The notes beneath the pieces were generated by a model. The model was not told where the DNA came from. It ran no database searches and worked only from the letters and a program-made list of their open reading frames with translations. A stretch of 64,000 bases of DNA from Eubacteriales bacterium (GTDB taxonomy: Bacteria; Bacillota; Clostridia; Oscillospirales; CAG-272): NCBI GenBank assembly GCA_045638385.1, contig JAZUBI010000117.1:29398-93397 (forward strand), in the 5' to 3' direction. A program made the translations under genes and the position numbers. Below are positions 1-17,157 of this stretch, piece by piece. Numbering within the stretch: position 1 is the stretch's first letter; every line of letters starts with the position of its first letter.

Positions 1-1
1 A

Positions 2-652
2 GGCGGTGGCGATAATAAAGGTATTACCCACGTTGAAATCGCAATAAACTCCGTAACATACACTACAATTCTCACAGACGCGGCATATGTAAAAACTAAC
101 ACATACTCATACCTTCAGGGTGACTCGCTTGTTGATGAGCTCCTTGAAAAATACAAGGATGAGATCGCAAAGGGCGACGAGGTTCTCGGCAATATATCTC
201 AGAACAAGTATTCCTCCACTATTACAAAAAAGGTCGCCGAGCTTTACTACCAAAAAGGTCTTGAGCTTTGGGGAGATCAATACTCCATAGTTCTCGGCGG
301 AGGTTATTTAAAAACAAGAAGCCCTTATGAGCTTACATCCGGTACGGTAAAGTACTCTGATCTTCAAACAATACTTCCCTTTGATAACCAGATCGTTCTC
401 TGTGCCATCAAGGGATCTGATCTCTTGTCGAAATTCTTTGAAACAAGCAATTCAAACTACCAAATTTATTATGGAAGCTATGGGGAAAGCGTGAAAAATA
501 ATATTGTCCCCGATTCAACATACTATATCATAACCGACACATACACTTCAAGCTATTCTTACAACAATTTGACCGAAATAGCGCGCCTTGACGAAGATGT
601 TTATGCGCGCGACCTGCTTGCAGAGTATATCAAGAACGGCGGTTGGAAATAA
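2..652 (+). CDS. 5'-nucleotidase family protein, C-terminal fragment (5' end outside window)
   Basis: Frame-2 ORF is open from the window edge. The tail (...YSDLQTILPFDNQIVLCAIKGSDL...) resembles the 5'-nucleotidase C-terminal substrate-binding domain. The listed 75-aa ORF is only its last Met-initiated part. Confidence 0.6.
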   Translation, partial: GGGDNKGITHVEIAINSVTYTTILTDAAYVKTNTYSYLQGDSLVDELLEKYKDEIAKGDEVLGNISQNKYSSTITKKVAELYYQKGLELWGDQYSIVLGGGYLKTRSPYELTSGTVKYSDLQTILPFDNQIVLCAIKGSDLLSKFFETSNSNYQIYYGSYGESVKNNIVPDSTYYIITDTYTSSYSYNNLTEIARLDEDVYARDLLAEYIKNGGWK

Positions 653-799
653 AAAATATAGATTATTTTGAGAGGTAATTTATGCCTAAATTCGAAGTAG
701 TATCCCCCGAATTAACCAAAAGGATGGAATATGAGAGCGAAACCGGGACTTTTCTCAACGTAGGATTTAACAACAACGATGTCGTAAGACGCCGCCAGG

Positions 800-1897
800 T
801 TGCCAAGGACAGAGCAACGATTTGGAGGCAGCCATTTTGTTCACGACATTGATAAAATCATGCATAGCCCCTATTTTAACCGCTATGCTGATAAAACTCA
901 GGTCTATTCGCTCTACAAAAACGATGATTTAACGCGAAGAAGCCTTCATGTACAGTTAGTTTCAAGAATTGCGCGCACCATCGGTTGTGCTCTTCACCTG
1001 AACCCCGACTTGATCGAGGCAATTGCTCTCGGTCACGACATGGGGCATCCCCCCTTTGCACACACGGGAGAAAAATATCTAAATGAGCTCTTTTTCGCTC
1101 ATTCTGGCAAATACTTCCTGCACAATTTACAATCGGTACGTGTTTTCGATAAGCTTTTTCCTCACAATATAAGCTTGCAGACCTTACACGATATTGCGAG
1201 CCATAACGGTGAGCTCGAGCTTCAGGAATATCATCCCGTTCCGATTTCAACATTTGCAGAGTTTGATGATTTGATGGAACGCTGCCAAAATGATATTTCA
1301 GTTGCAAACGGATTGCTCCCCTGCACTCTTGAGGGTGCAGTTGTTCGTATATCCGATATTATTGCATATCTCGGCAAGGACCGTCAGGATGCAATCAGAA
1401 CACAGAACGTAAACGAGCAGGATTTTGCAAATGAAGATATTGGATCGTTAAATTCCGAGATCATCAATAATCTTGTTGTAAATATCATTGAAAACAGCTA
1501 CGGCAAAAACTATATTCGCCTTGATAACAAGCATTTTGCCGCGCTTAAGCAATCGAAACGCGATAATTACGAGAAGATATACAATAAAACCGTATCCTCT
1601 GCTAAGCTTGACGTTACAGTTAAGCCGATGATGGCTGACATATACGAAAGATGTCTTTTCGATCTTGAGCATAACAAAGAGGATTCTCCGATCTATACAG
1701 AGCATATAAGCTTTATCGAGAGAACTCCTTATAAGCGAAAGGCGCCTTATATTGAAACAGAAAAGAATCAGATAGTTGTTGATTTCATCTCAAGTATGAC
1801 TGACGATTATTTCGTTGAGCTACATCAATTCCTATTCCCCGAATCAAGCTATCCGATACAGTACAAAGGATATTTTGAACATTTAAAAAATAAGTAA
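800..1897 (+). CDS. dGTPase-like HD-domain triphosphohydrolase (N-terminus probably frameshifted, see finding)
   Basis: HSPYFNRYADKTQVYS...RSLHVQLVSRIAR...ALGHDMGHPPFAHTGE matches the dGTP triphosphohydrolase family signature. The TTG at 800 has no RBS. An ATG at 682 with RBS GAGAGG opens a different frame that overlaps this one. Confidence 0.8.
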   Translation: MPRTEQRFGGSHFVHDIDKIMHSPYFNRYADKTQVYSLYKNDDLTRRSLHVQLVSRIARTIGCALHLNPDLIEAIALGHDMGHPPFAHTGEKYLNELFFAHSGKYFLHNLQSVRVFDKLFPHNISLQTLHDIASHNGELELQEYHPVPISTFAEFDDLMERCQNDISVANGLLPCTLEGAVVRISDIIAYLGKDRQDAIRTQNVNEQDFANEDIGSLNSEIINNLVVNIIENSYGKNYIRLDNKHFAALKQSKRDNYEKIYNKTVSSAKLDVTVKPMMADIYERCLFDLEHNKEDSPIYTEHISFIERTPYKRKAPYIETEKNQIVVDFISSMTDDYFVELHQFLFPESSYPIQYKGYFEHLKNK

Positions 1898-1908
1898 CGG
1901 AGATATTT

Positions 1909-2844
1909 ATGTTTGAACAGCTTTTTGACGCAATAAAAAAATACAACAGAATAATAATACATCGCCACTCCAATCCCGATGGTGATGCACTTGGAAGCCA
2001 GATAGGTCTTAGGAGCATTTTAACAGAAAACTTCCCGGAAAAGGAAATTTACACTGTTGGTGACTCCTCTGTACGCTTTGGATTTATGGAGGGATTTCAA
2101 AACGATATAATTCCCGATGAATATTACAAGGATGCTCTTGCAATCGTTCTCGATACCTCTGCAACCGCCCTTATAAGTGATCCGAGATATGCAACAGCTG
2201 AATGTACCGCCTGTGTTGACCATCACATTTTCTGCGAAAAATTCACCGACATTGAGGTTAGAAACACATCCTACGAAAGCTGCTGCGGTCTCATAGCCGA
2301 ATTTGCGATCGAATGCGGTCTGAAGCTCAATACTCTCGCCGCTAAGTCGCTTTACACCGGCATGGTAACAGATTCCGGACGTTTCCGCTATGATTCGACT
2401 AATTCAAATACCTTCAGACTTGCGTCTTATCTGATGCAAGAGAAATTTGATACAAATGAGATATATAATCATCTCTATGCAGACGATTTCAATTATATCA
2501 GATTGCGCGCAGAATTCATTTTGAAGATCAAATTCACAGAAAATAACGTTGCGTACATATACACAACCAAGGAGGAGCTCAAATCCTATTCCGTTGATAC
2601 ATTCTCTATCTCACGCGGAATGGTTGGAACTATGTCAGATATACGCGGAGTTGATGTTTGGGTAAACTTTACGGAAACAGATGACTCTGTTCTTTGTGAG
2701 ATCAGATCAAGCAAATATAATATTAACAAAATTGCTGTTAAATACGGCGGTGGAGGTCACGCTAAGGCAAGCGGAGCAACCTTGAAGGACCGTTCCGAGG
2801 CTATGAGCCTTCTCGAAGACCTCAATAATCTTTCTAAGGAGTAA
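1909..2844 (+). CDS. nrnA: DHH/DHHA1 phosphoesterase, NrnA-like oligoribonuclease / pAp phosphatase (paralogue 1)
   Basis: HRHSNPDGDALGS, DTS, VDHH and C-terminal GGGGHAKASGA motifs. Size of 311 aa fits NrnA. RBS ACGGAGA. Confidence 0.75.
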   Translation: MFEQLFDAIKKYNRIIIHRHSNPDGDALGSQIGLRSILTENFPEKEIYTVGDSSVRFGFMEGFQNDIIPDEYYKDALAIVLDTSATALISDPRYATAECTACVDHHIFCEKFTDIEVRNTSYESCCGLIAEFAIECGLKLNTLAAKSLYTGMVTDSGRFRYDSTNSNTFRLASYLMQEKFDTNEIYNHLYADDFNYIRLRAEFILKIKFTENNVAYIYTTKEELKSYSVDTFSISRGMVGTMSDIRGVDVWVNFTETDDSVLCEIRSSKYNINKIAVKYGGGGHAKASGATLKDRSEAMSLLEDLNNLSKE

Positions 2845-2846
2845 AA

Positions 2847-3827
2847 ATGAGTAACGAAGCAATAAAAAAAGTGTATGACAAGATATGCGAATATGATCGT
2901 ATTATAATCTTCCGTCATTTCAGACCCGATGGAGATGCAATCGGATCAACAAAGGGATTACAAAGAATTTTACAGCTTTCCTTTCCCGAAAAGGAGATTT
3001 ATCTCTTAAACAGCGATTTTTCCGATTACCTATCGTTTTTAGGCAAGGAAGATGATCCGATCGACGATTCCCTTTATGCCGATGCGCTCGGTATCGTTAT
3101 GGACACGGGTACAAGCTCGAGAATATCAAATAAAAAATATAAACTTTGCAGAGAAATAGTTAAATTTGATCACCACATTCCGATTGAATCTTACGGTGAC
3201 GTTGAATGGGTTGAAGAATTGCGTTCTTCAACGTGTGAGATGGTTGCGGCATTCTATGATGCTCTTTCGGACAAGCTGAAGATAGATAAGCTCGCTGCAA
3301 CATATATATACACGGGTATGGTTACAGACTCAGGCAGATTCCGTTTCCGTGACGTTTCGTCTGAAACAATGCGTCTTGCCGGCATAATGCTTGATTTTAA
3401 AATTGATACCGAATGGATCTATGCAAATCTTTACATGAAGGATCTTGCTTCATTCAAGTTTGAATCTTTCGTTTATACTAAGATTAAAATGACTGAAAAC
3501 GGCGTCGCTTATTTCCATGCAACACAAGCGATCCAGGACAAATGGGAGCTTACTCCCGAATCTGCGAGCGCTTCCGTTTCATATATGGATTCGATCAAGG
3601 GTTCACTGATATGGATCGCCTTTATTGATAATCCCGACGGAACAATACGCGTTAGACTTCGTTCGAGATTTTTACACGTTAATCAGATCGGTGAAAAATA
3701 CCGCGGCGGAGGACACGCTTCAGCTTGCGGCGCAACACTTCACAACAAAAAAGAAATCAAGATGCTTCTTGCTGATGCAGACAAGCTCCTTAAGGAATAC
3801 AAGGAAAATAACGAGGGCTGGTTATGA
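2847..3827 (+). CDS. DHH/DHHA1 phosphoesterase, NrnA-like (paralogue 2)
   Basis: FRHFRPDGDAIGS, DTG, FDHH and RGGGHASACGA motifs. RBS AAGGAG. Starts 2 nt after paralogue 1. Confidence 0.75.
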   Translation: MSNEAIKKVYDKICEYDRIIIFRHFRPDGDAIGSTKGLQRILQLSFPEKEIYLLNSDFSDYLSFLGKEDDPIDDSLYADALGIVMDTGTSSRISNKKYKLCREIVKFDHHIPIESYGDVEWVEELRSSTCEMVAAFYDALSDKLKIDKLAATYIYTGMVTDSGRFRFRDVSSETMRLAGIMLDFKIDTEWIYANLYMKDLASFKFESFVYTKIKMTENGVAYFHATQAIQDKWELTPESASASVSYMDSIKGSLIWIAFIDNPDGTIRVRLRSRFLHVNQIGEKYRGGGHASACGATLHNKKEIKMLLADADKLLKEYKENNEGWL

Positions 3828-4549
3828 AAATACTTATAACTAACGATGACGGCATTGAAGCTCTCGGTATAAAATTGCTTGTTGAATGGGCGAAAAAGCT
3901 TGGTGATGTCACCGTGGTCGCCCCAAAAGTTGAACAGAGCGGAAAAAGTCACGGAATTGAGCTCACCCATCCCATCGAGGTGCTTGACAGATCTGACTTG
4001 TACGGCGTTGAGGCATTCTCGGTAGATTCTACTCCTGCCGATTGTGTAAGATTCGGAATACTTGGACTTAAGAGGTCTTTTGATCTCGTTCTTTCCGGCA
4101 TCAATAGAGGCGCTAATCTTGGCAAGGATATTGTGTACTCGGGTACTGTAGGCGCAATTTTCGAGGCTGTGGCGCTGAATCACAAGGCTATTGCCTTCTC
4201 TACCTTCCCTGATGCCTTAAACGATGCTTCCAAGCATCTTGGCACTGCGTATGATTTTATAATGGGAAATAAGCTTCTTGAGCTGAATCCAATATATAAC
4301 GTAAATATCCCGCCTATTGCCAACGGCGTTAAGATCACACGCCAGGGTGCTTCTTATTTCGCTGATGAATTTGTCTCGATTGGAAATAATCTTTACAGCC
4401 AAAAAGGATATTATACACCCGACAGCGACCAAAGCAACATCGAATTGGATGCAGTTGCAGTAAATCACGGTCTGATTTCGATCACTCCGATGCAAAATGA
4501 CAGAACTGATATTTCAACCTACAACACAATAAAAAACCTCTTACCGTAA
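3824..4549 (+). CDS. surE: 5'/3'-nucleotidase SurE
   Basis: MKILITNDDGIEALGI...GINRGANLG signature. ATGA start/stop overlap with the upstream gene. Confidence 0.85.
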   Translation: MKILITNDDGIEALGIKLLVEWAKKLGDVTVVAPKVEQSGKSHGIELTHPIEVLDRSDLYGVEAFSVDSTPADCVRFGILGLKRSFDLVLSGINRGANLGKDIVYSGTVGAIFEAVALNHKAIAFSTFPDALNDASKHLGTAYDFIMGNKLLELNPIYNVNIPPIANGVKITRQGASYFADEFVSIGNNLYSQKGYYTPDSDQSNIELDAVAVNHGLISITPMQNDRTDISTYNTIKNLLP

Positions 4550-4570
4550 TTCGGTAAGAGGCCTTTTTTT
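4531..4570. terminator. bidirectional intrinsic terminator between surE and the RNase gene
   Basis: A6, then CCTCTTACCG / CGGTAAGAGG 10-bp stem, then T7. It overlaps both stop codons. Confidence 0.8.
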
Positions 4571-5777
4571 ATAGTCGGTTTTCAAAAGCTGAGAACTTTC
4601 TCGTATAATACAAATCACCCGATAATATAACGGAAAAATAATAGGTTACACTTGCTGTGGAATCCTCTGTTTTTAGTACAATAGAAGCTTCATACACTTC
4701 AACGTAAGGAGTAGGATTGTAGTGTGAGTTGCTTGATAATGTGCCGCCTCCGGTTATGTTACCAAACATCTCGCCCCAACCGCCGAAATAGTTCAAATAC
4801 TCCTGAAAATCATTATAGTGATTATAGGTGTAAAAAATATAAACTACATCGGTTGAATCTGTTATTCCATTTTTATTGAGGTCATTCCAGGTGTAAACTA
4901 AGCGAGCCGCGCCGCGTGTTATGATAGAGCCGTCATTATAGATTCGAATAGAATATCCGGGATCACAGTCGGTTCCTGTTGTACCGATATCCATCTCCCA
5001 ATACTGGAGATCTCCTCCACATCCGTTGATTCTCGGCAAAACAGGCTCATAAGGGTATTTGGTTGTATTTCCACTGAATTTGGTGTTATTCACACGAAGA
5101 TACTTGCCCCAAATGCTGTCAGTAGGCTTTGTTCTCTTGCTTGACGAATGATTTGCAGGTGGCTCACCGAACGCATAAATATATGCGGCAACCTCCTCAA
5201 GAGTTATATATCCACCGCCGCGGTATACACGGAGAACCTCTTGTCCATAAGCATTTACAACAACGTATGTATTATAATCGATGTAATATGAATTTGTATT
5301 TTTAACATATTTGCCATCAATTATAGGTCGATATTCAGAAATAGTCGGAGCCTGGTCGGGCACAGTGTCAGCACCCGCAATTTCACCTCGTGATGCGCGG
5401 TCACTTGCATCCTCATAGCTTGTTGCAGGATTGCTGTTACCGTAAAATTTATCACGACTCGCTTCATCAACCGCCGAAAGGTCATCCGTCTCGGCTTCAG
5501 TGGATGTTTCACTCTCAGTATTATCGCTCGCAAATGATTCAGTTTCGGTGTTATTCTCTGATTCGTCTTCGGTTTCAACCTTTTGTGAATCATTTTCTGT
5601 TCCTTGACTTTCACTATTGGATTCAAATGTTGATGTGCTAATCGTTTCATCGAGCGTTTGATCTTCAGCTACGTCTTTATCTCTTCCGCGATCTTCGGTT
5701 ATATCGCAGGAAACAGAAAACAAAAGTACCGCGATGAGTAAGAAAGTCGATAAAAACTTTAAGAACTGTTTTTTCAT
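4569..5777 (-). CDS. secreted lipoprotein with barnase/RNase Sa-family (N1/T1) ribonuclease domain
   Basis: Lipobox LLFSVSC, then an acidic S/T/E linker. EVAAYIYAFGEPPANH, QYWEMDIG, TRGAARLVY and YNHYNDFQEY align with barnase VADYLQTYHKLPDNY, WREADI, RNSDRILY and TDHYQTF. The ATG at 5777 has RBS GAAGGAA and is preferred over the TTG at 5795. Confidence 0.7.
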   Translation of the reverse strand: MKKQFLKFLSTFLLIAVLLFSVSCDITEDRGRDKDVAEDQTLDETISTSTFESNSESQGTENDSQKVETEDESENNTETESFASDNTESETSTEAETDDLSAVDEASRDKFYGNSNPATSYEDASDRASRGEIAGADTVPDQAPTISEYRPIIDGKYVKNTNSYYIDYNTYVVVNAYGQEVLRVYRGGGYITLEEVAAYIYAFGEPPANHSSSKRTKPTDSIWGKYLRVNNTKFSGNTTKYPYEPVLPRINGCGGDLQYWEMDIGTTGTDCDPGYSIRIYNDGSIITRGAARLVYTWNDLNKNGITDSTDVVYIFYTYNHYNDFQEYLNYFGGWGEMFGNITGGGTLSSNSHYNPTPYVEVYEASIVLKTEDSTASVTYYFSVILSGDLYYTRKFSAFENRL

Positions 5778-5808
5778 ATATAATTCCTTCTGCAAATTTA
5801 TTCGAATA

Positions 5809-5837
5809 ATTATACCACATTTTAAAGCTTAAGTCAA
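5809..5837 (-). promoter_or_regulatory. SigA-type promoter of the RNase gene (TTGACT-17-TATAAT, TG-extended)
   Basis: Minus strand reads TTGACTtaagctttaaaatgtggTATAAT. Confidence 0.7.
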
Positions 5838-5858
5838 GAAATTAAATTCAAATATTGT

Positions 5859-5885
5859 AAAAACCCCACCGCTTTTGCGGTGGGG
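5859..5885 (-). terminator. intrinsic terminator ending the ABC/nuclease operon
   Basis: CCCCACCGC-TTTT-GCGGTGGGG stem-loop, followed by U5 on the minus strand. Confidence 0.8.
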
Positions 5886-5918
5886 TTAAACAAATTATTG
5901 CGTTATAGATAAATTATA

Positions 5919-8738
5919 TTATTCAGCGTCAACTGCAGTGAACTGACCCCAGTTATAGCTACCGGTGAGATCATAGCAGCTGAAGTTATTGTAAGTGCTG
6001 CTGGCACCTGCACCGAATGCACGGTTATTGGAATCCAAAGCAACTGCGAGCGTGTTCTTCTCAGCGTTCCATTCAAATGCAGTTGCACTTGCGGCATCGG
6101 TAACCAACGAGCCGCCGGTTGAAGTGTCATCCATTACAACGTAGGTCTTTGTATCGGCTACATAGAAGTAAAGGAGATACTCGCCTGCGTTTGTTGCATT
6201 CTCAACATAAACTGTTACAGCCTTGGAAGCATCAGAAGAACCGTTGAAGCGTCCGCCGGAAACAGTTCCGTCGAAGTAAAGTAAACCGTTTGCATTAGCA
6301 GCAGAAATGGTGTAGCCTTTACCAACCTCAAGACCTGCACTAGGTGTGGGAGCAGGAGCTTCTCCGCCGGTCGCGCCGCCTTCTGTGCCTTCGCCACCCT
6401 CAGAGCCTTCGCCGTTATCGGGAGTTACAGGGATCTCTGCCATCTCAACGAAGTTATACTCGAGCGGGAACTGCTCTACGCCGGTGTTATCTGCTGTGAT
6501 GTAAGAAAGCTTGGAAGCACTTACAGTCTCAAAAGTATTATATGTTCCGAGGTAGTACTCTGTTCCGCCAAATACTGCAACCCACGCATTTACAGTTGCA
6601 TTGTAGTTAAATACAGAATTGCCTGCTGCATCATACTTAACAGAAAGCTTACCCTCATCATTGTTGTATATAGTGATATACTGCTTAGCACCTTCTACAA
6701 CGATATAGAACTTGTAGCCGTCTGCAACCTTTTCAGCGTAAACAGTTACTGCCTTTGTTGCGTCATCGGTAGTTGTAAGATATCTTCCGCTTACACCGCC
6801 GTCAAGGTAAAGAACCTTGTTATCAACCTTAGCCTGAGTAAGAGAAGCGGTGTGCGATCCATCAGGAACAGCTACGAGAAGCTCAAGCGGGAACTGAGAA
6901 ACACCGGTGTTCTCTGCAGTGATGTAAGAAAGGTTAGATACACTAATGGTATCAAAGTTGTTATATGTTCCGAGGTATACTTCTGTATCGTTGAATACAG
7001 TAACGTATGCATTTACGGTAGGATTGTATGTAAAAACAGTGTTTCCTGCAGCGTCATAGTTTACAGAGGTCTTGTTTTCGCTGTTGTTGTAAATTGTAAT
7101 ATACTGCTTAGCACCCTCTACGAGTATATAGAACTTATAGCCGCCTGCAACCTTTTCAGCATATACGCCAACAGCCTTGGATGCATCAGTGGTGGTTGTG
7201 AGATATCTTCCGCTTACACCGCCGTCAAGGAAGAGAGCGGTACCGTTCTTAGCCTGGTAGATGTAAGGAATGTAAGGAAGTGTCTCGGACATAACAAGAG
7301 CGGGAGCTACCTCAACGGTATACTCCTTGGTCTCGGTCAATTCGCCAAGAGTGATTGTAGCTGTGAACTTAAGAGTTACAGCATCTGCACCAAGCTTGAT
7401 CTCAACCTTACCGTCATCGCCGATGGTGAAGGCTGTGTTGTCAACAGTCCATGCGAACTTAACATCGCTATAGTACTGACCAACCAAGGGGAGAGTGAGG
7501 ACTGTATCAGCGCTGATAGATCCGGGAACTACAAGATCCTTAACCTCATCAGCAATCTTCTCAGCGGGAGTCTTCTCTACAAGCTCGAGATACTCGAAGC
7601 AATCAACGCTCATAGGAATGAGGTAAGGAGCGCCGCTGTAAAGAACGAGGATACCGGTTGCGTTAGCAGTCCAGCCATACTTTTCAGCATGTGCTGTCTC
7701 GATAGCAGTCTTGTCAGGGCTGGAAACTGCGCCGTTCTCGCCCTTAACGATTGTAAGAGTTGTGGGGAAATCAGTAACGTAAGATCTTACGTAAGCGGTC
7801 TTACCGTTAAGCTCAAAGTTAAGGTAATCACTCGAACCGCCAAGAACCTGATTCTTGATGGTTACACCCTTAATGGTTACAGGGAGACCAACGTAGTTCT
7901 TGAGATCGGCACCGGATGCGAACTTGTCGGTGATATCAAGAACATCTACAGACTTGATTGTTTCATCAACGATCGCAAATGTACCGCCCTTGAGCTCCTG
8001 CATTCCGGAGTAAGGCTCTACAACAGAGGTTACTGCAACAGTCATACCGACCTTAACGCCTTCAGCAACAGGGTCCATATCGAGCTGGTAGCAGTAGTAA
8101 CCGCCCTTGCCGTCTACATCAGCGAGGAAGAGGTGGTTTCTGGAGTTTCCAACGCTCTTAGCGTTCATTGCAACAACGATACCCTCAACAACCATGTTAG
8201 TACCCTTCTCTGCAGCCATGTACTCCTCAAAGGTAGCTACATCGTAAACAGGTACAACGAGATTAAGAGTAAAGGTGGCGGTTGTGCCGTCTCCTGCAGT
8301 TACAGTTGCAGTAAGAGTATAGCTGTACTCTTCTGCTGTCTTGTGCTCAAGGTCGATTGTCCAATCAGACTCGCCCTTAATAGCCTTTACCTTCTCGTTG
8401 TTGGAAGCCCAATCAACGGTGTAAGGAACGTTAGCGATTCTAACCTGGGAAACAAGAGTGAAATCAGCGCCTGTAACGTTGTTTTCCTTGTACTTAGCGT
8501 AGAGTGCATTGAGGTTAGCAACTGCTGCCTCGACATCATACTCGATATCAGGTGTGGGATCTGTCACCGATTCAGACTCGGACTCAGATTCGCTTCCTGC
8601 GGACTCGGTAGGTGTCTCGGTGCTTGCCGAGGTACCGCTTCCTGAGGTTGTGGTTTCTTCATTTCCCTTCTTATCACATGCAGCAAAAATTGCAAGGCAC
8701 ATGATAACAGCAAGGAAGATAGCAATAATTTTTTTCAT
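5919..8738 (-). CDS. 939-aa surface lipoprotein: Ig-like region, two OB-fold-like domains, three copies of a ~105-aa module
   Basis: Lipobox AIFAAC, S/T/E linker, RBS AAAGGAGA. The segment GTNMVVEGIVVAMNAKSV...VTSVVEPYSGMQELKGG looks like the OB fold seen in YhcR-type nucleases. It carries internal tandem repeats. Confidence 0.75.
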   Translation of the reverse strand: MKKIIAIFLAVIMCLAIFAACDKKGNEETTTSGSGTSASTETPTESAGSESESESESVTDPTPDIEYDVEAAVANLNALYAKYKENNVTGADFTLVSQVRIANVPYTVDWASNNEKVKAIKGESDWTIDLEHKTAEEYSYTLTATVTAGDGTTATFTLNLVVPVYDVATFEEYMAAEKGTNMVVEGIVVAMNAKSVGNSRNHLFLADVDGKGGYYCYQLDMDPVAEGVKVGMTVAVTSVVEPYSGMQELKGGTFAIVDETIKSVDVLDITDKFASGADLKNYVGLPVTIKGVTIKNQVLGGSSDYLNFELNGKTAYVRSYVTDFPTTLTIVKGENGAVSSPDKTAIETAHAEKYGWTANATGILVLYSGAPYLIPMSVDCFEYLELVEKTPAEKIADEVKDLVVPGSISADTVLTLPLVGQYYSDVKFAWTVDNTAFTIGDDGKVEIKLGADAVTLKFTATITLGELTETKEYTVEVAPALVMSETLPYIPYIYQAKNGTALFLDGGVSGRYLTTTTDASKAVGVYAEKVAGGYKFYILVEGAKQYITIYNNSENKTSVNYDAAGNTVFTYNPTVNAYVTVFNDTEVYLGTYNNFDTISVSNLSYITAENTGVSQFPLELLVAVPDGSHTASLTQAKVDNKVLYLDGGVSGRYLTTTDDATKAVTVYAEKVADGYKFYIVVEGAKQYITIYNNDEGKLSVKYDAAGNSVFNYNATVNAWVAVFGGTEYYLGTYNTFETVSASKLSYITADNTGVEQFPLEYNFVEMAEIPVTPDNGEGSEGGEGTEGGATGGEAPAPTPSAGLEVGKGYTISAANANGLLYFDGTVSGGRFNGSSDASKAVTVYVENATNAGEYLLYFYVADTKTYVVMDDTSTGGSLVTDAASATAFEWNAEKNTLAVALDSNNRAFGAGASSTYNNFSCYDLTGSYNWGQFTAVDAE
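6457..7285 (-). repeat. in-gene tandem duplication (2 x ~400 bp) encoding the LDGGVSGRYLTTT...GYKFYI...YLGTYN...SYIT module
   Basis: Two adjacent copies are roughly three-quarters identical at protein level by eye. A third degenerate copy lies at about 5925..6345. Confidence 0.85.
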
Positions 8739-8770
8739 AGCGTCTCCTTTTAAATTTGTATGAAAATTTT

Positions 8771-10204: not shown

Positions 10205-10225
10205 AAATTACCTATCAGTCAGTAA

Positions 10226-11716
10226 TTAAGAGAGATACTTACACTTTGCAATTGCCTGATCGAAAGCGTCCTTGATGAGTGCATCAACGTCTCCGTCAGC
10301 AATAACAAGGCACTGCTGCATAAGAAGTCCAACCTGGTCACGAGCAACGGATGAACCGTTGAACGCGGGAGATGTATAGTACGCATCAACCTGCTCCAAG
10401 CAAATCTTTGCAGAGAGAGCTGCAATGTAGTCACCGCCGTCTGCCTTGTCAAGGAACTTGGTCTTGTAAGCATCGTATTCAGCAACAGACTCAAGTACCG
10501 GAACGTATCCTGATACCATGGAGAACTCAGCCTGGAAATCAACGTTGGTTGTAAGGAACTTCATAAAGAGCCAAGAAGCATAAACCTCCTGCTTGTTCTC
10601 TTTCTCAAATATACAGAGAGAAGGACCCTGAGAAATTACCTTGGGATTTGCGGGATCAACCTGAGGAATGGTAGCAATTCCAACCTCGAAGGGATAAGAG
10701 TTACCAACCTTTGTAGGACGCTGGTGAGTAGCACCTGCGGAGGAACCGATGGACATGTAGCTTCTCTGTCCCTCAGTAGCTACGAAAAGACCGGATGTAT
10801 ATGATCCGAAGAGCTCCTGAGTAGTAAGATAGCCCTTCTTATACCAATCTCTGAATTCCTTGACAAATGCTCTGTTTTCAGCGGTATTAAAGAGGAAGTG
10901 CTCACCGGTTGCGCTTGTGTAGGGAGTGCCAAGCTGCTCGGTCATAGTAATGAACCAGTTTGCCTCACTGTCATATCCGAGAGGAATGCAATCAGGATCA
11001 ATTTCAAGAATTCTTGCGCAAAGAGCCTCAAGCTCATCCCATGTTGTGGGAGGAGTAAGGTTGTGCTTATCGAAGAATGTCTTGTTGTAGTAAAGAACCT
11101 CGGTAGACTTGGAAAGCGGGAGGGTGTACATTTTACCGTCACCGAACTGCTTACCTTCATTGTAATAACCGTCAATAAAGTCATCTATCTGTACCTGAGA
11201 GAGACCCATACGCTCTTCCTCTCCGTCAGCGCGCTCAACAACAGCCAAGCTATTGATGAGAGAGTTAAGCGGAACAACAGCCTTAGAGATGTTGTAAAGA
11301 GCCACGTGGTCGGGATAGCAGTAAGCTATATTGGGCTGGTTACCAACGGTGATCTCAGTGCTTATACGTGTACGTACATCGTCGTAACCACCAACCTGCT
11401 CGTGCTGAACGGTGATGTTAGGATAGAGCTTGTTGAACTCTTCGATGTAAGCGTTGAGAACGTCAGAAAGGTTCTGACCCATCGTGTGATAGAAAACGAT
11501 GGTTACCGCACTACCGTCGTAGCCTTCTTCATCGGAGTCGATAATTCCGTCTCCGGATCCTTCTGTGCCTTCTGTGCTTTCCTTCTCAGAAGTGCTTTCG
11601 CCGGGCTTTTTGTCATCATCCTTCTTATCGTCAGATGACTTGTCGCAGCCAACAAATGCAAAGCAGCTAAGAACAAGTGCAAGCAACAAAATCACAGCAA
11701 CAAGTGATTTTTTCAT
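10226..11716 (-). CDS. ABC transporter substrate-binding lipoprotein (family-1 / CUT1 type)
   Basis: Lipobox AFVGC and K/D/E/S linker. Length and pattern are typical of MalE/UgpB-like SBPs. The ATG at 11716 has RBS GGAGGA and is preferred over 11731. Confidence 0.75.
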   Translation of the reverse strand: MKKSLVAVILLLALVLSCFAFVGCDKSSDDKKDDDKKPGESTSEKESTEGTEGSGDGIIDSDEEGYDGSAVTIVFYHTMGQNLSDVLNAYIEEFNKLYPNITVQHEQVGGYDDVRTRISTEITVGNQPNIAYCYPDHVALYNISKAVVPLNSLINSLAVVERADGEEERMGLSQVQIDDFIDGYYNEGKQFGDGKMYTLPLSKSTEVLYYNKTFFDKHNLTPPTTWDELEALCARILEIDPDCIPLGYDSEANWFITMTEQLGTPYTSATGEHFLFNTAENRAFVKEFRDWYKKGYLTTQELFGSYTSGLFVATEGQRSYMSIGSSAGATHQRPTKVGNSYPFEVGIATIPQVDPANPKVISQGPSLCIFEKENKQEVYASWLFMKFLTTNVDFQAEFSMVSGYVPVLESVAEYDAYKTKFLDKADGGDYIAALSAKICLEQVDAYYTSPAFNGSSVARDQVGLLMQQCLVIADGDVDALIKDAFDQAIAKCKYLS

Positions 11717-11778
11717 GGTGTTTTCCTCCATTAAATAATTTTATTTGTGTTAAGCCATTCGTTTTAGCGAATAAGCGA

Positions 11779-12801
11779 TTAACCTTTGATACCGCTTCGG
11801 CTGACGCCCTTCATGATGTACTTTCTAAGGAAGATAAATACAAGGAAGAGCGGGAGTGAAACGAGCGCAACCGCAGCCATCTGCGCGGGGTAGTCTGTCA
11901 TACCGTCAGCGCCTGAGAATGCGTGACGCAATCCGTTGGTTATGAGTCGGTAGTTCTTATCGTGAGCAACGAGGTTAGGCCACATATAAGAGTTCCATGC
12001 ACCCATCATCTTCAAAATAGTGATTGAAATGATTGTAGGAAGTGCGAGAGGAATCATTACCTTACAGAGATATTTGAAATCGCTTGTACCGTCAACCTTT
12101 GCTGCAAGGTAAAGCTCATTGGGTATCTGCAAGAAGTTCTGTCTCAAAAGGTAGATATAGAAAATACTTACCAAGAAAGGAACTATCAATGCTGCGTATG
12201 TCGAGTCGACCATAGGAATCTTGAAATCAGGTCCAAAGAGACCGTACATGTTTCCAAGTCCGTTAAATACAACCTTAAACCAGCTGTCCTGCTTCATAAC
12301 GGTAGCGTAGTTTGTGATTGTAAACAACTCACCGGGTATCATCATAGTACCGAGGAGCGCTGCGAACAAAGCATTCTTACCCTTGAATTTAAGTCTTGCA
12401 AAAGCAAATGCAGAAAAGATAGTAATTACAAGCGACAGGATCGTAGAAACAATACCTACGTACATTGTGTTTCTGAGCAACAGGAACAAATCAAATTCAG
12501 TATGCTGACCCGTAAGGATGCTTGTATACGTTTCAACTCTTATTTTGTTCGGGAAAAGAGTAGGAACAGGAAGATTATACTCTTCGAGTGTCTTCAATGA
12601 CGAAACGATCATGAAGTAGAACGGGAAAAGGATAATCAGCGCCATAATACTAAGGAAAGTATAAACCAATATCTTTCCAATGATCTTTTTGATCTTCTGG
12701 CTTGTTGCGACCTGATGTATGTCACGATCCTGCATAACCTTATTTTTAGGAGTAGCTTCAGACTCTTTCTTTTTGAAGTTAAATAATTCTTTAATTTTCA
12801 C
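11779..12801 (-). CDS. ABC transporter permease (MalG-like)
   Basis: EAA-type loop LAAKVDGTSDFKYLCKVMIPLALP and multiple TM segments. The GTG at 12801 is preceded by AAGGAGG and is preferred over the overlapping TTG at 12822. Confidence 0.8.
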   Translation of the reverse strand: MKIKELFNFKKKESEATPKNKVMQDRDIHQVATSQKIKKIIGKILVYTFLSIMALIILFPFYFMIVSSLKTLEEYNLPVPTLFPNKIRVETYTSILTGQHTEFDLFLLLRNTMYVGIVSTILSLVITIFSAFAFARLKFKGKNALFAALLGTMMIPGELFTITNYATVMKQDSWFKVVFNGLGNMYGLFGPDFKIPMVDSTYAALIVPFLVSIFYIYLLRQNFLQIPNELYLAAKVDGTSDFKYLCKVMIPLALPTIISITILKMMGAWNSYMWPNLVAHDKNYRLITNGLRHAFSGADGMTDYPAQMAAVALVSLPLFLVFIFLRKYIMKGVSRSGIKG

Positions 12802-12818
12802 GTCTGTTCCCTCCTTTA

Positions 12819-14741
12819 TCAATAATGGGTGCTCTTTTTGCTGATCCAGAGGTTAAACATGGTAACAACAAAGATTATAGCGAAGAGGATCAATGCAGCC
12901 GCGCCCGCTCTTCCGTAGTTAGAGGATCCGAGCTGATCCTGAATGTGTCCAACGATTGTATTCATGTTGGGGCTTCCGCCGGTAACCATTCTATCGTCAC
13001 CGAAGATACCGACAACGCTGGAATATTCCTTAAATCCACCGATAAAGCTGGTGATAACGGTGTAAGTGATCATAGGAGAAAGCAGCGGAACGGTTATGCG
13101 GAGAAGCACACGCCACTTGGGTGTTCCATCAACCTTTGCGGCATCATAATACTGCTTATTGATACTCTGCAAGCCGCCAAGCAATATAAGGATCTTAAAG
13201 GGCAACGCATTCCAAACGATATAAACTATCAATGCGGTAAATGCCGCCCAAGGCTCTGCGCCCTGGTTGATCCAGTTAATGCGGTCGATGCCGAATACGC
13301 CCAAAATATTGTTTATAATACCGACCGACTCACTGGTGGAGTTGATTCCGACGATGTTAAACATTGCCGCGAATACCATACCGATCGCTATGGAGTTTGT
13401 AACGTAAGGAAGGAAGAAGATTGTCTGAAGGAATCTCTGGAGCGCCTTGATAGAGTTAAGAGCAACTGCGATCAAGAGAGCTAATACAGTTGAAATCGGA
13501 ACTGTAATGACAGTAAGAATAAGAGTGTTCTTCAAGCAAAGCATGAAGTCACTTCCCTCATCGGTAAGAACCTGAACAAAGTTCTGAAGACCGAACTTCG
13601 ATACGGTATCACCCTGTAAGAGGTTTGCAGTCAATCTAAGACCTGCATTGTCAGATTCAGCATCGGTCAAATATGTAAGAGTACCGTTCGCAAAGCGATA
13701 CGCACCTATACGGTATGCGTCGTCTGAATAAAGCTGGGTCATTTCCTTTGCTTCACCGTCGGCGCTGTCTCTGTGCATATAGATTGCCGCAGGAGCAGCT
13801 GCTTCTTCAGCATTGATGTTGGACAAGAGAGCGAGGGACAAGCGGCTATCGTAATTATCGAGTGCAAGATAATATACATTGTCCTCGAATGTACATGTCC
13901 AAGCCTTATGCTCCTTGCTGTAGAAGAAGACATCACCGTCACCCAAAGCATATTTCAAGGTAACATTTCCATCTTCATCGGAGACAGCCTTTATAAAGAG
14001 GTTCTCCTCTGCTGATGTTGAATTCTTGATATAAAGCTTATATCCTCTGACATCGTCAACCTTTACCGACTTAGGCCAGATCTGAGCAGCCTTATTAAGT
14101 GCGGTTGTTGCACCAACGTTCCCCTCGGTGGATGATCCCTTAACGTACATATACGCCTCAGGCGTACCCTTGAAAACTCCGAGCTTATAATATTTATCTG
14201 TGAATCCCGCCTCATCCTTATCGGATTTCTCGGTTTCAGTCTCAGCTTCGCCCTCGTTTTCATCGTCCGCAGCGGACTCGGGAATAGCAAGACTGCTGAA
14301 GGTCTCCTCAAAGAGTCCCGCAGGGTAAATAGTCTTACCAATCTTATCGATGTTATCGTTCAACGCGTAAACGTTAAGATCACTTGCCTCTTCAGCGCCG
14401 AGGAAGTAAACAGTATCATTTACTGTAGTTGTCCAAACACCGTGCTCTTCATTATAGAAGAATGAGCTCTTGGAGCTTGTTGCGTATTGCAATTCAAGAA
14501 CGCCATCTTCATTCTTATCGGCTACAAGATAATTTTTTGAGTTCTTGTCGCCAAGGCGGTAGAAATAGTAACCGCCGTCATCTGCAGCTTCGACGTTAAC
14601 GTGCGCCATGCTGTAATTCACGTCATATATAAACGATGTGACGACCGTATTGATAATAGGCCACACAGTAAATATAAGAAGCAAAATGATAGCAGGAAGC
14701 AGGTATAGCCAAGCTTTCCATTGATGTTTGCTATCTACCAT
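12819..14741 (-). CDS. ABC transporter permease (MalF-like) with ~345-aa insert between TM1 and TM2
   Basis: TM1 at about aa 8-37. The canonical permease core starts at about aa 385 (YDAAKVDGTPKWRVLLRITVPLLSP). aa 38-383 contain two copies of the lipoprotein module plus an acidic linker. Confidence 0.8.
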   Translation of the reverse strand: MVDSKHQWKAWLYLLPAIILLLIFTVWPIINTVVTSFIYDVNYSMAHVNVEAADDGGYYFYRLGDKNSKNYLVADKNEDGVLELQYATSSKSSFFYNEEHGVWTTTVNDTVYFLGAEEASDLNVYALNDNIDKIGKTIYPAGLFEETFSSLAIPESAADDENEGEAETETEKSDKDEAGFTDKYYKLGVFKGTPEAYMYVKGSSTEGNVGATTALNKAAQIWPKSVKVDDVRGYKLYIKNSTSAEENLFIKAVSDEDGNVTLKYALGDGDVFFYSKEHKAWTCTFEDNVYYLALDNYDSRLSLALLSNINAEEAAAPAAIYMHRDSADGEAKEMTQLYSDDAYRIGAYRFANGTLTYLTDAESDNAGLRLTANLLQGDTVSKFGLQNFVQVLTDEGSDFMLCLKNTLILTVITVPISTVLALLIAVALNSIKALQRFLQTIFFLPYVTNSIAIGMVFAAMFNIVGINSTSESVGIINNILGVFGIDRINWINQGAEPWAAFTALIVYIVWNALPFKILILLGGLQSINKQYYDAAKVDGTPKWRVLLRITVPLLSPMITYTVITSFIGGFKEYSSVVGIFGDDRMVTGGSPNMNTIVGHIQDQLGSSNYGRAGAAALILFAIIFVVTMFNLWISKKSTHY

Positions 14742-15845
14742 TTACTCCACCTCAAAATAAATTCTTTCTTCAGTTTCTTTGTTAAAGAGGAATACCTTAT
14801 GAGGCTTCAAAGAATAGCTAATGGTTTCGGAATTTATATCGATCTTCTGATCGGAATTGATAATAGAGCGGATAGCGGGGTTGAGCGAGCTCTCATGCGT
14901 TGAAATAACGCTTACGTCGCGTCCCATGACCTCAACGTTAGTGAGCTTGCAAACAAGCTTGCCGTTAGCATCAGGGTTAAATCCTTCAGGACGAACACCT
15001 ACATAAACCTCCTGATCCTCAACACCGGGAACAGAGAGAACCTCGGAATTGCCAAGGTAGAGCTTTTCAGCCTTAACCTCACCCTGGAATACGTTGATCG
15101 GAGGAGTTCCAAGGAACTTAGCAACGAAAAGATTTGTGGGGCTATCGTAAATATCCTGAGGCTTGCCGATCTGCTGGAGAACACCGAGCTTCATAACTAC
15201 GATCATATCGGAAATAGACATAGCCTCTTCCTGGTCGTGTGTTACGAATACAGTAGTAATTCCGGTTTCCTTCTGGATTCTTCTGATCTCTTCACGAGTC
15301 TGGAGACGGAGACGAGCATCGAGGTTGGAAAGCGGCTCGTCAAGAAGGAGAACGCGAGGCATCTTTACAAGTGCACGCGCGATAGCAACTCTCTGCTGTT
15401 GACCACCGGAAAGCTCACTGGGCTTTCTGTCCATAAGCTCATCAATCTGAACAAGGCGAGCTGCCTCGAGAGCTCTCTCGTTCATTTCGGTCTTTGTAAG
15501 CTTGTCCGCACCCTTAAGGTTCTGAAGCGGGAACAAAATATTCTGTCTTACGGTAAGGTGAGGATAGAGTGCGTAGTTCTGGAACACGAGTCCAACGCCT
15601 CTGTTTTCGGGGGAAAGCGCGGTTACGTCCTCTTCACCAAAGAAAATCTTACCGGACGAAGGCTTTTGAAGACCACTGATCATGTAAAGAGTGGTACTCT
15701 TACCACAGCCCGAAGGGCCGAGAAGACCGACGAGCGTTCCGTCGGGGATAGTGAAGGTAAAATCATTTACCGCCACTACTTCCTCACCCGACTTTTTGTT
15801 TCGGCTGGGGAAGATCTTTGTTAGATTTTGAAGTTCGACTTTCAT
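14742..15845 (-). CDS. ABC transporter ATP-binding protein (MalK/UgpC/MsmX-like)
   Basis: Walker A GPSGCGKST, signature LSGGQQQRVAIARAL, Walker B LLLDEPLS, and a C-terminal MalK-type regulatory domain. RBS AGGAGG. Confidence 0.9.
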   Translation of the reverse strand: MKVELQNLTKIFPSRNKKSGEEVVAVNDFTFTIPDGTLVGLLGPSGCGKSTTLYMISGLQKPSSGKIFFGEEDVTALSPENRGVGLVFQNYALYPHLTVRQNILFPLQNLKGADKLTKTEMNERALEAARLVQIDELMDRKPSELSGGQQQRVAIARALVKMPRVLLLDEPLSNLDARLRLQTREEIRRIQKETGITTVFVTHDQEEAMSISDMIVVMKLGVLQQIGKPQDIYDSPTNLFVAKFLGTPPINVFQGEVKAEKLYLGNSEVLSVPGVEDQEVYVGVRPEGFNPDANGKLVCKLTNVEVMGRDVSVISTHESSLNPAIRSIINSDQKIDINSETISYSLKPHKVFLFNKETEERIYFEVE

Positions 15846-15924
15846 ATGACCTCCTGAAAGTTGTGCATGCCGCAGGATGTGACACGCATATATGTTTTAA
15901 TTTTTTTTTTGACGATTTAAGTGA

Positions 15925-16686
15925 TTAATACGACTGTTCCTTTGCCTTTTTCTCGGCAATGCTCTTCTTATATTCGATGAGCTCCTCTGTATCGTTAAAC
16001 ATCATTTGCGTTTGCATGTCGACGGTAACGGTCACTGCGAAAAGATCGTGTATCATTGAATTTGTTTTTGTGAAAATCATAAGACAGAGCTGCAGGATAA
16101 GAATTGCTACAATGAGTATCAATCCCAATGTTCCGAGCAGGCCCATGAAAACGAACAGCGCAAGGAATATCGGGAACATAGTCTCGACCGTGAATTTACC
16201 GAGAATAGTTCTGACGAAAACCTGCAGGGGGGTTATTTTAACACCGTCCACCCTCATAAGACCAATTCGGAAAAGCTTTTTTCCGATGGTTTGTCCGTTT
16301 TTGAATACGAGCGGAAGAACAAGCTCCAATATGATAAATGAAAACAACAGAGCAAGAGATGCAATCGCAATGAACAAAAGAATGATCTCCACCTGCAATT
16401 TTTTAAGAGTACTGTCACTTCTCAGCTCAAGTGTAGCCTCATCGTACCTGACTCTATCGGGTCCGGGGAGAGCATCAACCTCTTCCTGAGTCAAATCAAG
16501 TCTGGTGCTGTATTTTTCCTCGTAAGAATAGTAAAGCTCGTTATACTGCGCGACCTTTGACTCATATCCGAGGACATAGGACAAAACGGGCGCCAAAGCG
16601 AGGACGACAAGACACAAAATAAGAAAATCCACGAGAAATGCAGCGAGTCTTTTGGATACGCTTGCTTTGTATAATTCAAACTTCAT
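15925..16686 (-). CDS. RDD family membrane protein
   Basis: N-terminal SKRLAAFLVDFLIL plus the central KNGQTIGKKLFRIGLMRVDG motif typical of RDD proteins. The ATG at 16686 has RBS GGAGAT and is preferred over 16737. Confidence 0.65.
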   Translation of the reverse strand: MKFELYKASVSKRLAAFLVDFLILCLVVLALAPVLSYVLGYESKVAQYNELYYSYEEKYSTRLDLTQEEVDALPGPDRVRYDEATLELRSDSTLKKLQVEIILLFIAIASLALLFSFIILELVLPLVFKNGQTIGKKLFRIGLMRVDGVKITPLQVFVRTILGKFTVETMFPIFLALFVFMGLLGTLGLILIVAILILQLCLMIFTKTNSMIHDLFAVTVTVDMQTQMMFNDTEELIEYKKSIAEKKAKEQSY

Positions 16687-17131: not shown

Positions 17132-17157
17132 TGAAGGATTTAGCGAGGTAACACACA

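Follow-up and report, generated by a model that had tools for sequence, protein, structure and literature searches.

Introduction

CUT1-type ATP-binding cassette (ABC) importers classically carry sugars, and the nucleoside importers of the CUT2/Bmp type (NupNOPQ, RnsBACD and PnrABCD) use a substrate-binding protein (SBP) of the Bmp/PnrA family, take nucleosides as cargo and have a different permease and ATPase architecture. In Bacillus subtilis, YhcR is a cell-wall-anchored protein with the layout OB-OB-SNase-5'-nucleotidase, which is sortase-anchored and has no link to a transporter. Structures of a dinucleotide-binding protein (DnBP) from Thermus were reportedly described by Chandravanshi, Samanta and Kanaujia (FEBS J, 2021). 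Here we describe a seven-gene operon that joins surface nuclease lipoproteins to a predicted CUT1 importer, found in a stretch of 64,000 nucleotides (nt) from a Eubacteriales bacterium (GenBank assembly GCA_045638385.1, contig JAZUBI010000117.1, positions 29,398 to 93,397 of the forward strand). This whole stretch is referred to as the window, and the operon and its homologues in other genomes are referred to as the cassette. In our view the cassette probably serves to harvest nucleic acids and to bring some product of their breakdown into the cell.

Nuclease genes beside sugar-type transporters are familiar from mycoplasmas. In these organisms the gene of an SNase lipoprotein (mhp379, MAG_5040, Mpn133, MHO_0730 or MbovNase) stands beside a sugar-type ABC transporter and the lipoprotein P80/MslA (PMC3585158, PMC4045577, PMC9740415, PMC12115388). 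The Mycoplasma agalactiae genes are co-transcribed, P80 models as a sugar-type SBP, and in the model put forward for mycoplasmas the oligonucleotides are brought to the nuclease while the ABC system imports the products (PMC3585158, PMC4045577, PMC9740415, PMC12115388). Mycoplasma SNase-ABC operons have been proposed as nucleotide-precursor importers since 2007 (PMC3585158, PMC4045577, PMC9740415). For free-living wall-less bacteria, degradation loci have been described that combine ABC transporters with a thermonuclease or an extracellular RNase and with NrnA or phosphohydrolases. The two organisms concerned break down DNA or RNA, and in one of them, Hujiaoplasma, DNA or RNA induces many of the locus genes (PMC8397711, PMC10470597).

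Results

A conserved cassette of nucleases and an importer

Region 1..16686 of the window holds 13 genes, whose domains were assigned with Pfam and NCBIfam models. Seven of these genes form a single operon, in which the gaps between neighbouring genes range from -4 (an overlap) to 79 nt:

16686 to 5919, minus strand: the seven-gene operon as a whole (RDD protein, ATPase, two permeases, SBP, SNase lipoprotein and 939-aa lipoprotein)
15925..16686, minus strand: RDD-family membrane protein, first gene of the operon (PF06271, E 1.3e-11)
14742..15845, minus strand: MalK/UgpC-type ABC ATPase with a C-terminal regulatory domain (ABC_tran, E 3e-37)
12819..14741, minus strand: MalF/UgpA-like permease of 640 aa (BPD_transp_1, PF00528, at aa 418-636)
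11779..12822, minus strand: MalG/UgpE-like permease (BPD_transp_1, PF00528; best NCBIfam names UgpE, GlcU and MalG)
10226..11716, minus strand: SBP lipoprotein of the UgpB/dinucleotide-binding-protein subgroup of CUT1 SBPs (SBP_bac_8, E 4e-37; SBP_bac_1, E 8e-23)
8771..10204, minus strand: SNase-family surface lipoprotein (PF00565, E 2.3e-9, 38.1 bits against a 21-bit cut-off; SNase domain at aa 82-224, nt 9533..9961)
5919..8738, minus strand: modular surface lipoprotein of 939 aa (lipobox FAAC)

The gene order was compared among 83 loci, comprising the best 80 species genomes and three metagenome contigs. Apart from three that are of Spirochaetes, the best 80 were metagenome-assembled genomes (MAGs) that come from human and animal guts and belong to Oscillospiraceae, Lachnospiraceae, Christensenellaceae or unclassified Clostridia; the three Spirochaete genomes are MAGs as well. 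Relatives of the SBP number in the thousands, with the best 120 at 66-81% identity, and a scan of one genome per species found the family in at least 503 species genomes. It was found that the SNase gene directly follows the SBP gene in all 83 loci, and that the seven-gene core is collinear and on a single strand in every one of the 57 loci in which all seven genes were detectable. An RDD homologue lies upstream of the ATPase gene in each of the 60 loci with enough upstream DNA, and a homologue of the large lipoprotein follows the SNase gene in 72 of 73. Because the core is collinear in 57 of 57 loci, the clustering of these genes is not due to chance, and the expectation of a preliminary description of this locus, that nuclease and transporter genes would be conserved together, was borne out. 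The sole locus with enough downstream DNA in which no large-lipoprotein homologue was detected is that of a Christensenellaceae MAG (L054, downstream of 12916).

The cassette of the Spirochaete MAGs, from Bullifex (L063), Spirochaetales (L068) and Ornithospirochaeta (L071), runs from the RDD gene to the large lipoprotein in L063 and L071; the sequence of L068 breaks off on the upstream side. The SBPs of these MAGs are 64-70% identical to the Clostridial ones. The occurrence of the cassette in Spirochaete MAGs suggests lateral transfer among gut anaerobes, or mis-binning.

The substrate-binding lipoprotein and its nearest solved relative

We examined the SBP against solved structures. From a phmmer search of the PDB, the top matches were the 7C0F/7C0x entries (E 1.8e-22), followed by UgpB (6e-13), with sugar binders at 1e-7 or worse. 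A profile of the SBP family gave the same order, with 5e-22 for the 7C0F series against 1.4e-14 for UgpB. For an AlphaFold model of the SBP (predicted local distance difference test, pLDDT, of 76), the top 18 Foldseek matches were all 7C0x entries, at a template-modelling (TM) score of 0.82. This AlphaFold 2 (AF2) model superposes on CUT1 SBPs at TM 0.7-0.8, and the UgpB structures are its second-best neighbours in the PDB. The 7C0F series is the DnBP of Thermus thermophilus, crystallised with the dinucleotide UpG.

Ligand contacts were defined as the eight residues mutated in the PDB 7C0F series, their contact role being assumed from that mutant series. The equivalents in the SBP of the window are as follows:

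Thermus Y56: Y116 in the window SBP, identical
Thermus S127: S209, identical
Thermus Q274: Q368, identical
Thermus Y224: Y311, identical, by MAFFT; L315 by HMMER
Thermus F79: Y139, conservative
Thermus N81: D141, conservative
Thermus T240: S330, conservative
Thermus Y246: H336, changed

All eight contact-equivalent positions are invariant across 22 family members, a pattern that fits a related, not necessarily identical, nucleotide-type ligand. The SBP does not reach the NCBIfam UgpB equivalog model NF008211 (68 bits against a 411-bit cut-off), and its N-terminus gives a weak match to the mycoplasma P68 lipoprotein model (E 8.5e-7). Judged from these comparisons, the ligand of the SBP is most likely a small phosphodiester or nucleotide, which would include mono-, di- or slightly longer oligonucleotides.

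The importer and a domain that it shares with the large lipoprotein

The remaining transporter genes are also of sugar-importer type. The ATPase gives weak OB_MalK and CysA_C matches, below the gathering score, and falls below the cut-off of the UgpC subfamily model (343 against 432 bits). The best NCBIfam names of the permeases are MalF, UgpA, MalG and UgpE, and EAA-like loops are seen in both of them, with the EAA-type loop LAAKVDGTSDF visible in the translation of the MalG-like permease. With an SBP of the SBP_bac_1 type, two BPD_transp_1 permeases and a MalK-type ATPase, the transporter fits the CUT1 ABC importers by its predicted domains.

The MalF-like permease carries an insertion of ~350 aa in its first extracytoplasmic loop, and this insertion consists of two copies (nt 13785..14606) of a ~130-aa domain. 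The same domain occurs three times in the 939-aa lipoprotein (nt 5925..7283), and the permease insert matches the lipoprotein by BLASTP with E 7e-14. With a hidden Markov model of the repeat, one to six such domains were detected in the lipoprotein encoded downstream in no fewer than 27 loci; the permease carries the domain only in the window and its nearest relatives (L001, L005, L006 and L007). A direct scan of the isolated repeat gave no Pfam match, and the AF2 model predicts the domain to be all-beta. Its presence on both the lipoprotein and the mouth of the transporter suggests, by way of speculation, a part in substrate capture or docking.

Predicted surface nucleases and nucleic-acid-binding modules

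The SNase lipoprotein retains the residues of the catalytic site. The equivalents of SNase D21, R35, T41, E43 and R87 are D95, R114, T120, E122 and R165, and these are invariant in 28 family members, all 28 of which match PF00565. With its catalytic residues retained, the protein is expected to be an active enzyme. The position of D40, a calcium ligand in SNase, is taken by N119 (codon 9848..9850), with N in 25 of the 28 members and D in three, and this exchange of Asp40 for Asn may alter the metal dependence. The C-terminal half of the protein shows weak OB-like matches in some homologues.

The 939-aa lipoprotein is laid out as a conserved N-terminal domain, an OB fold, a second beta-barrel-like domain, an aBig_2 domain and the three ~130-aa domains, and its AF2 model has a pLDDT of 78.6. 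The OB fold (aa 165-262, nt 7953..8246) was recovered by hhalign against 228 homologue OB segments (99.3% probability, E 8e-21). A direct Pfam search of the whole protein or of its isolated OB-like segments gave no OB match and returned aBig_2 alone. Among positional homologues of the protein, 33 of 47 match PF01336; the OB folds that Pfam detects in them sit after aBig_2, where the window protein has its three ~130-aa domains instead. It was also noted that some homologues in the cassette slot after the SNase gene carry a fused Endonuclease_NS domain or a faint PLDc_2 domain (L089, 4968..9167; L090, 9001..12735). Because of these fused Endonuclease_NS or PLD-like domains, the slot appears to be filled by variable modules with predicted roles in nucleic-acid processing.

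Downstream of the operon lies a separate gene, whose product is a probable divergent barnase-type RNase:

4569..5777, minus strand: probable surface lipoprotein whose RNase domain is a divergent one of the barnase/T1 type (domain at ~aa 180-330, nt 4788..5240)

On PF00545 this protein scores 17.5 bits, below the gathering score of 24 bits, and each of its 11 homologues matches the same model, the best with E 1.4e-4. The motifs PANYxxxK, YxExDIG, ITRGAARxVY and YNHYNDF are invariant in the family and, aligned by eye, follow the order of barnase K27, E73, R83/R87 and H102. Direct BLAST against barnase gave E 0.11, which is not significant, and a profile search with the RNase-like family found no RNase in the PDB. 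The protein carries a lipobox-like signal, SVSC, and is for this reason probably a lipoprotein, in place of the freely secreted enzyme that the preliminary description had assumed. The domain assignments made there hold overall, with the exceptions that the barnase domain stays below the Pfam cut-off and that the 939-aa protein has one provable OB fold. Upon testing, the lipoprotein domains did not turn out to be carbohydrate-binding modules.

Nucleotidase, NrnA-like and salvage genes around the cassette

An operon that converges on the RNase gene encodes the following proteins:

1..646, plus strand: 3' end of a gene of the 5'-nucleotidase/2',3'-cyclic phosphodiesterase family, the N-terminus lying beyond the window (open reading frame 2..643; PF02872 5_nucleotid_C, E 1.5e-5)
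800..1897, plus strand: cytoplasmic HD-domain dGTP triphosphohydrolase-like protein (HD and HD_assoc)
1909..2844, plus strand: NrnA-like DHH/DHHA1 phosphoesterase, copy 1 (DHH and DHHA1; DHH and GGGH motifs visible)
2847..3827, plus strand: NrnA-like DHH/DHHA1 phosphoesterase, copy 2 (DHH and DHHA1)
3824..4549, plus strand: SurE 5'/3'-nucleotidase (PF01975, E 1.6e-48; TIGR00087 at 160.3 bits, above the 135.1-bit cut-off)

The truncated 5'-nucleotidase has a homologue of full length in L079, a lipoprotein in which a Metallophos domain is combined with 5_nucleotid_C, and it is therefore probably an extracellular surface lipoprotein as well. The two NrnA-like copies score 230 and 243 bits on the NCBIfam NrnA model, which has a cut-off of 350. 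The PADLOC model for anti-phage dGTPases picks up the HD protein with E 1.8e-40, and on all NCBIfam dGTPase equivalog models the protein stays below the cut-off. A reading of the locus as anti-phage defence was rejected; the PADLOC matches are the dGTPase-like protein and, weakly, the SNase, and nothing else.

Of the accessory genes, NrnA-like ones were counted within 10 kb of the cassette in 36 of the 83 loci; for the others the number of loci is 29 (SurE), 16 (HD), 11 (RNase) and two (5'-nucleotidase). An unbiased clustering of the neighbouring open reading frames also returned a 5'-3' exonuclease, a PHP-domain protein, thymidine kinase, a fusion of NT5C (deoxynucleotidase) and guanylate kinase, pyrimidine nucleoside phosphorylase, and a fusion of phosphopentomutase and cytidine deaminase. 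In one contig a uridine kinase lies near the cassette. There was no recurring family of carbohydrate-active enzymes in the neighbour clustering of the 83 loci. By their predicted functions, the neighbours of the cassette are enriched for nucleotide salvage.

Related importers in other lineages

Two Bacilli have importers of the same kind beside different enzymes. The operon of Lactobacillus psittaci (L086, 501..9290) encodes a cytoplasmic RNase_T-type exonuclease, a secreted Endonuclease_NS protein with a signal or anchor, an ATPase, two permeases, a hydrolase of the metallo-beta-lactamase fold and two SBPs. That of Neobacillus niacini (L088, 5078..12475) encodes an ATPase, two permeases, an SBP, a metallo-beta-lactamase-fold hydrolase and a 5'-nucleotidase, with both enzymes lacking a signal peptide. 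The SBPs of these Bacilli are 28-29% identical to that of the window (E 1e-31 to 1e-39) and are closer to it than the Thermus protein is. We regard these operons as candidate analogues built from different enzymes. Since phosphodiesterases and nucleotidases that stand beside these importers are cytoplasmic, we infer that the cargo is still phosphorylated on entry.

A relative in Alicyclobacillus is linked to a glycerophosphodiester phosphodiesterase (GDPD) gene, and its SBP lacks equivalents of F79, Y246 and Q274 that the nuclease-linked SBPs keep. The pattern among independent lineages, a small sample of five loci, favours a nucleotide or oligonucleotide cargo over nucleosides or sugars, as far as gene content can indicate.

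Operon signals and flanking genes

The signals at the ends of the operons were located as follows:

16762..16789, minus strand: candidate promoter of the operon, TTGTCA-16-TATGAT, a match to a consensus scan only
5859..5885, minus strand: intrinsic terminator at the end of the seven-gene operon, the hairpin CCCCACCGCaaaaGCGGTGGGG followed by TTTTT, read directly
5809..5837, minus strand: promoter of the RNase gene, TTGACT-17-TATAAT with extended TG, a near-consensus extended -10 promoter
4531..4567, both strands: bidirectional terminator, a hairpin where the SurE gene and the RNase gene converge (scan: 16 and 10 bp)

The ATG of the RDD gene at 16686 is backed by a GGAGA ribosome-binding site. 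The preliminary description had placed all 13 genes, the limits of the operons, the 5859..5885 terminator and the RNase gene's own promoter correctly. The one match of an Rfam scan of this region is a sub-threshold trpB motif (4525..4602, minus strand) that scores 32.9 bits where the gathering score is 59, with E 0.29; it coincides with the bidirectional terminator hairpin and is almost certainly not real.

On the other side of the RDD gene, and divergent from the cassette, 17158..23289 (plus strand) encodes a secreted protein of 2043 aa, with one InlB B-repeat-like domain (Flg_new_2) as its sole Pfam match. A mobile-element context was rejected; the neighbours are the housekeeping genes of SecA, PcrA/UvrD, RqcH and MnmA.

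A proposed route from polymer to nucleotide pool

From the above, the following route is proposed. The OB-fold lipoprotein would hold extracellular DNA or RNA at the cell surface, and the SNase lipoprotein would cut the held polymer to short fragments. In this genome the barnase-type RNase lipoprotein, and probably a surface 5'-nucleotidase/phosphodiesterase, would add to the cleavage. The products of SNase and barnase carry 3'-phosphates. The SBP would capture the short products and pass its ligand to the CUT1 importer, formed of the two permeases and the MalK-like ATPase, and the RDD membrane protein would serve as an accessory. In the cytoplasm, the two NrnA-like phosphoesterases could split short oligonucleotides and strip 3'-phosphates; NrnA degrades 2-5-mers and removes the 3'-phosphate from 3'-phosphoadenosine 5'-phosphate (pAp). 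SurE would make nucleosides inside the cell, and salvage kinases and phosphorylases, encoded nearby in relatives, would return these to the nucleotide pool or to catabolism. A 3'-nucleoside monophosphate (3'-NMP) cannot enter nucleotide pools directly, so that a SurE-type 3'/5'-nucleotidase followed by nucleoside kinases would be a sensible route.

The general outline, in which surface nucleases feed a CUT1 importer and the DHH, SurE and HD proteins finish the degradation in the cytoplasm, had already been sketched in the preliminary description and is supported by the co-conservation of the genes, the nearest relative of the SBP, the salvage neighbours and the Bacilli operons. The link to the NrnA/SurE operon that formed part of that sketch is real in 36 of 83 loci; it is also partial, and stands mostly in one arrangement. 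As for the cargo, the nearest relatives of the SBP and the enzymes beside the related importers make phosphorylated mono-, di- or oligonucleotides the answer that we lean towards. A bolder proposal is that 3'-phosphorylated di- to oligonucleotides would cross the membrane intact through the CUT1 system, that the OB-fold and SNase lipoproteins and the extracellular domains of the permease would form one surface complex channelling products to the SBP, and that NrnA-type enzymes would be its obligatory cytoplasmic partners. We put this forward tentatively and hold it to be doubtful as a whole.

Several observations weigh against the import of nucleotides. The identity of the SBP to the Thermus dinucleotide binder is just 23-26%, the contact residue Y246 is replaced by H, and the equivalent of Y224 shifts with the alignment method. 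The genes in Thermus and Meiothermus stand with two permeases and no nuclease. The probable surface 5'-nucleotidase of this genome would make nucleosides outside the cell. NrnA, SurE and dGTPase have housekeeping roles too, and neither the NrnA-like proteins nor the dGTPase-like one reach the NCBIfam equivalog cut-offs. The NrnA/SurE operon adjoins the cassette in less than half of the loci, and the same convergent downstream arrangement is seen in 31 of 34 cases, so that shared descent, and not selection, could explain part of the linkage. An Rfam scan of window 1..18000 (E<=1) found no riboswitch. Upstream of the RDD gene in 49 loci, neither sites for cre, PurBox, Pho-box, CodY and NrdR nor enriched 8-mers rose above shuffled controls, and this absence of a known nucleotide-, carbon- or phosphate-responsive operator is counted here as well.

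The alternative that survives best is that nucleic acids are scavenged but cleaved outside the cell to nucleosides or to ribose and deoxyribose, which the CUT1 system would import like a sugar. This would agree with the classic sugar cargo of such systems, with the matches of the SBP to SBP_bac_1/8 and to many sugar-binding structures, and with the nucleoside kinases and phosphorylases that recur near the cassette. The probable surface 5'-nucleotidase lipoprotein of this genome would supply the nucleosides, yet a surface nucleotidase accompanies the cassette in just two of the 83 loci, and NrnA-like genes are its commonest neighbours. Binders of phosphodiesters, namely the dinucleotide-binding protein and UgpB, come closer to the SBP than any protein that binds sugars, and the cytoplasmic phosphodiesterases and nucleotidases of the Bacilli importers would be pointless for a nucleoside cargo. 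On these grounds we consider the import of nucleosides or pentoses unlikely.

Less probable again is phosphate scavenging of the Ugp kind, in which the importer would take up glycerol 3-phosphate, glycerophosphodiesters or other organophosphates, and the nucleases would mainly free phosphate or process teichoic-acid-like polymers. By NCBIfam the SBP is best named UgpB, one permease UgpE and the ATPase UgpC, but the Ugp models are far below their cut-offs, as the 68 bits against 411 for UgpB illustrate. UgpB structures come second among the PDB matches, and the Alicyclobacillus relative is linked to a GDPD glycerophosphodiesterase; in this GDPD-linked relative, however, the contact positions with aromatic and Gln residues, which the window SBP has kept, are changed. 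Across the 83 loci neither GDPD nor phosphate-regulon genes stand within the cassette or close to it, there is no Pho-box-like repeat upstream, and it is with a nuclease and an OB-fold protein that the transporter is strictly conserved.

Very improbable, finally, is the view that the nuclease lipoproteins (acting on biofilm extracellular DNA, on host DNA traps or in defence, with the HD dGTPase possibly depleting deoxynucleoside triphosphates against phages) and the transporter (for a glycan) are unrelated neighbours: surface SNases of pathogens do degrade neutrophil extracellular traps and biofilm DNA (PMC9740415), the HD protein does match the PADLOC dGTPase model (1.8e-40) and glycoside hydrolase genes are close by in some loci, but the collinear operon is invariant across Clostridia and some Spirochaete MAGs, the intergenic gaps are short with one terminator for seven genes, the lipoprotein and the permease loop share the ~130-aa domain, there are no further matches to defence models, and the glycoside hydrolase neighbours are not conserved.

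Discussion

Nucleotide import by this cassette bears on two existing questions. The cargo of the nuclease-linked ABC transporters of mycoplasmas has been a question since 2007, and the physiological meaning of the dinucleotide-bound SBP of 2021 is another. A large and well-conserved family ties an SBP to a nuclease, a nucleic-acid-binding lipoprotein and often nanoRNases, which makes the substrate question testable with one soluble protein. If nucleotide import is true, many abundant gut anaerobes would take DNA and RNA from the diet, host cells and dead microbes as oligonucleotides. This would matter for cross-feeding with nucleotides, for how extracellular DNA is turned over in the gut and for the way in which annotations of the "sugar ABC transporter" kind are read. 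It would also provide first functional contexts for an RDD protein and for an unnamed extracellular domain. Should the system prove to be a true oligonucleotide importer, no ABC importer of oligonucleotides would have been defined physiologically before it, and the substrate of the mycoplasma system would be named with it.

The preliminary description had considered this substrate class to be new for the transporter family, and in this respect it has to be corrected. Proposals for mycoplasmas date from 2007 (PMC3585158, PMC4045577, PMC9740415) and an SBP with bound dinucleotide from 2021 (PDB 7C0F series). The concept is thus not new, and the binding of a dinucleotide by this SBP family has a precedent in a structure. 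For the present cassette, with its gut Clostridia hosts, RDD gene, modular OB-fold lipoprotein and link between a DnBP-like SBP and a nuclease, we found no description in the literature.

Comparison with known systems

The CUT2/Bmp importers also serve nucleic-acid salvage; the window system has none of their domains in Pfam and NCBIfam scans. A "nucleotide ABC transporter" of Streptococcus suis was set aside as a precedent, being an unrelated Bmp-type system. YhcR shares the surface repertoire of OB folds, SNase and 5'-nucleotidase, whereas the window splits these domains over separate lipoproteins that are tied to an importer operon.

UgpBAEC of Escherichia coli and Mycobacterium tuberculosis is built on the same transporter architecture and likewise carries a phosphodiester or phosphomonoester; it is the second-best structural neighbour. 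The Ugp equivalog models are nevertheless far below cut-off in the window, and the cassette lacks a GDPD or Pho-regulon context and has nucleases as its obligatory partners. The degradation loci of wall-less bacteria, which are described at the level of annotation, hold a similar set of predicted functions.

The Thermus dinucleotide-binding protein belongs to the same UgpB-like subgroup of CUT1 SBPs as the window SBP, which appears to retain most of the presumed ligand-contact residues. In contrast to the cassette, the Thermus gene has no nuclease, OB-fold protein or NrnA nearby, and the window SBP is 80-90 residues longer and a lipoprotein. The DnBP-like importers of Bacilli are, like the window system, CUT1 operons with nucleases, phosphodiesterases or nucleotidases. 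They differ in lacking the SNase, the OB-fold lipoprotein and the RDD protein, and in their enzyme families, which are Endonuclease_NS, RNase_T, the metallo-beta-lactamase fold and a cytoplasmic 5'-nucleotidase.

The nucleotide transporter operons of mycoplasmas include mhp379 in M. hyopneumoniae, MAG_5030-5070 in M. agalactiae and MBOVPG45_0307-0311 in M. bovis, with the related Mpn133 in M. pneumoniae and MslA/MGA_0676 in M. gallisepticum. Compared by description (PMC3585158), they share with the cassette the genes of an SNase lipoprotein, of a second lipoprotein that is SBP-like or binds polynucleotides, of a MalK-like ATPase and of a pair of sugar-type permeases. In mycoplasmas these genes are co-transcribed, and the role proposed for them is to cut nucleic acids of the host and take in precursors (PMC3585158, PMC4045577, PMC9740415). 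The gene order differs, as the lipoproteins come first in mycoplasmas and last in the window cassette. Neither an RDD protein nor a large OB-fold lipoprotein has been reported from the mycoplasma operons, whereas the window cassette has both. The hosts differ as well: mycoplasmas are obligate parasites without nucleotide synthesis, and the hosts of the cassette are free-living gut anaerobes.

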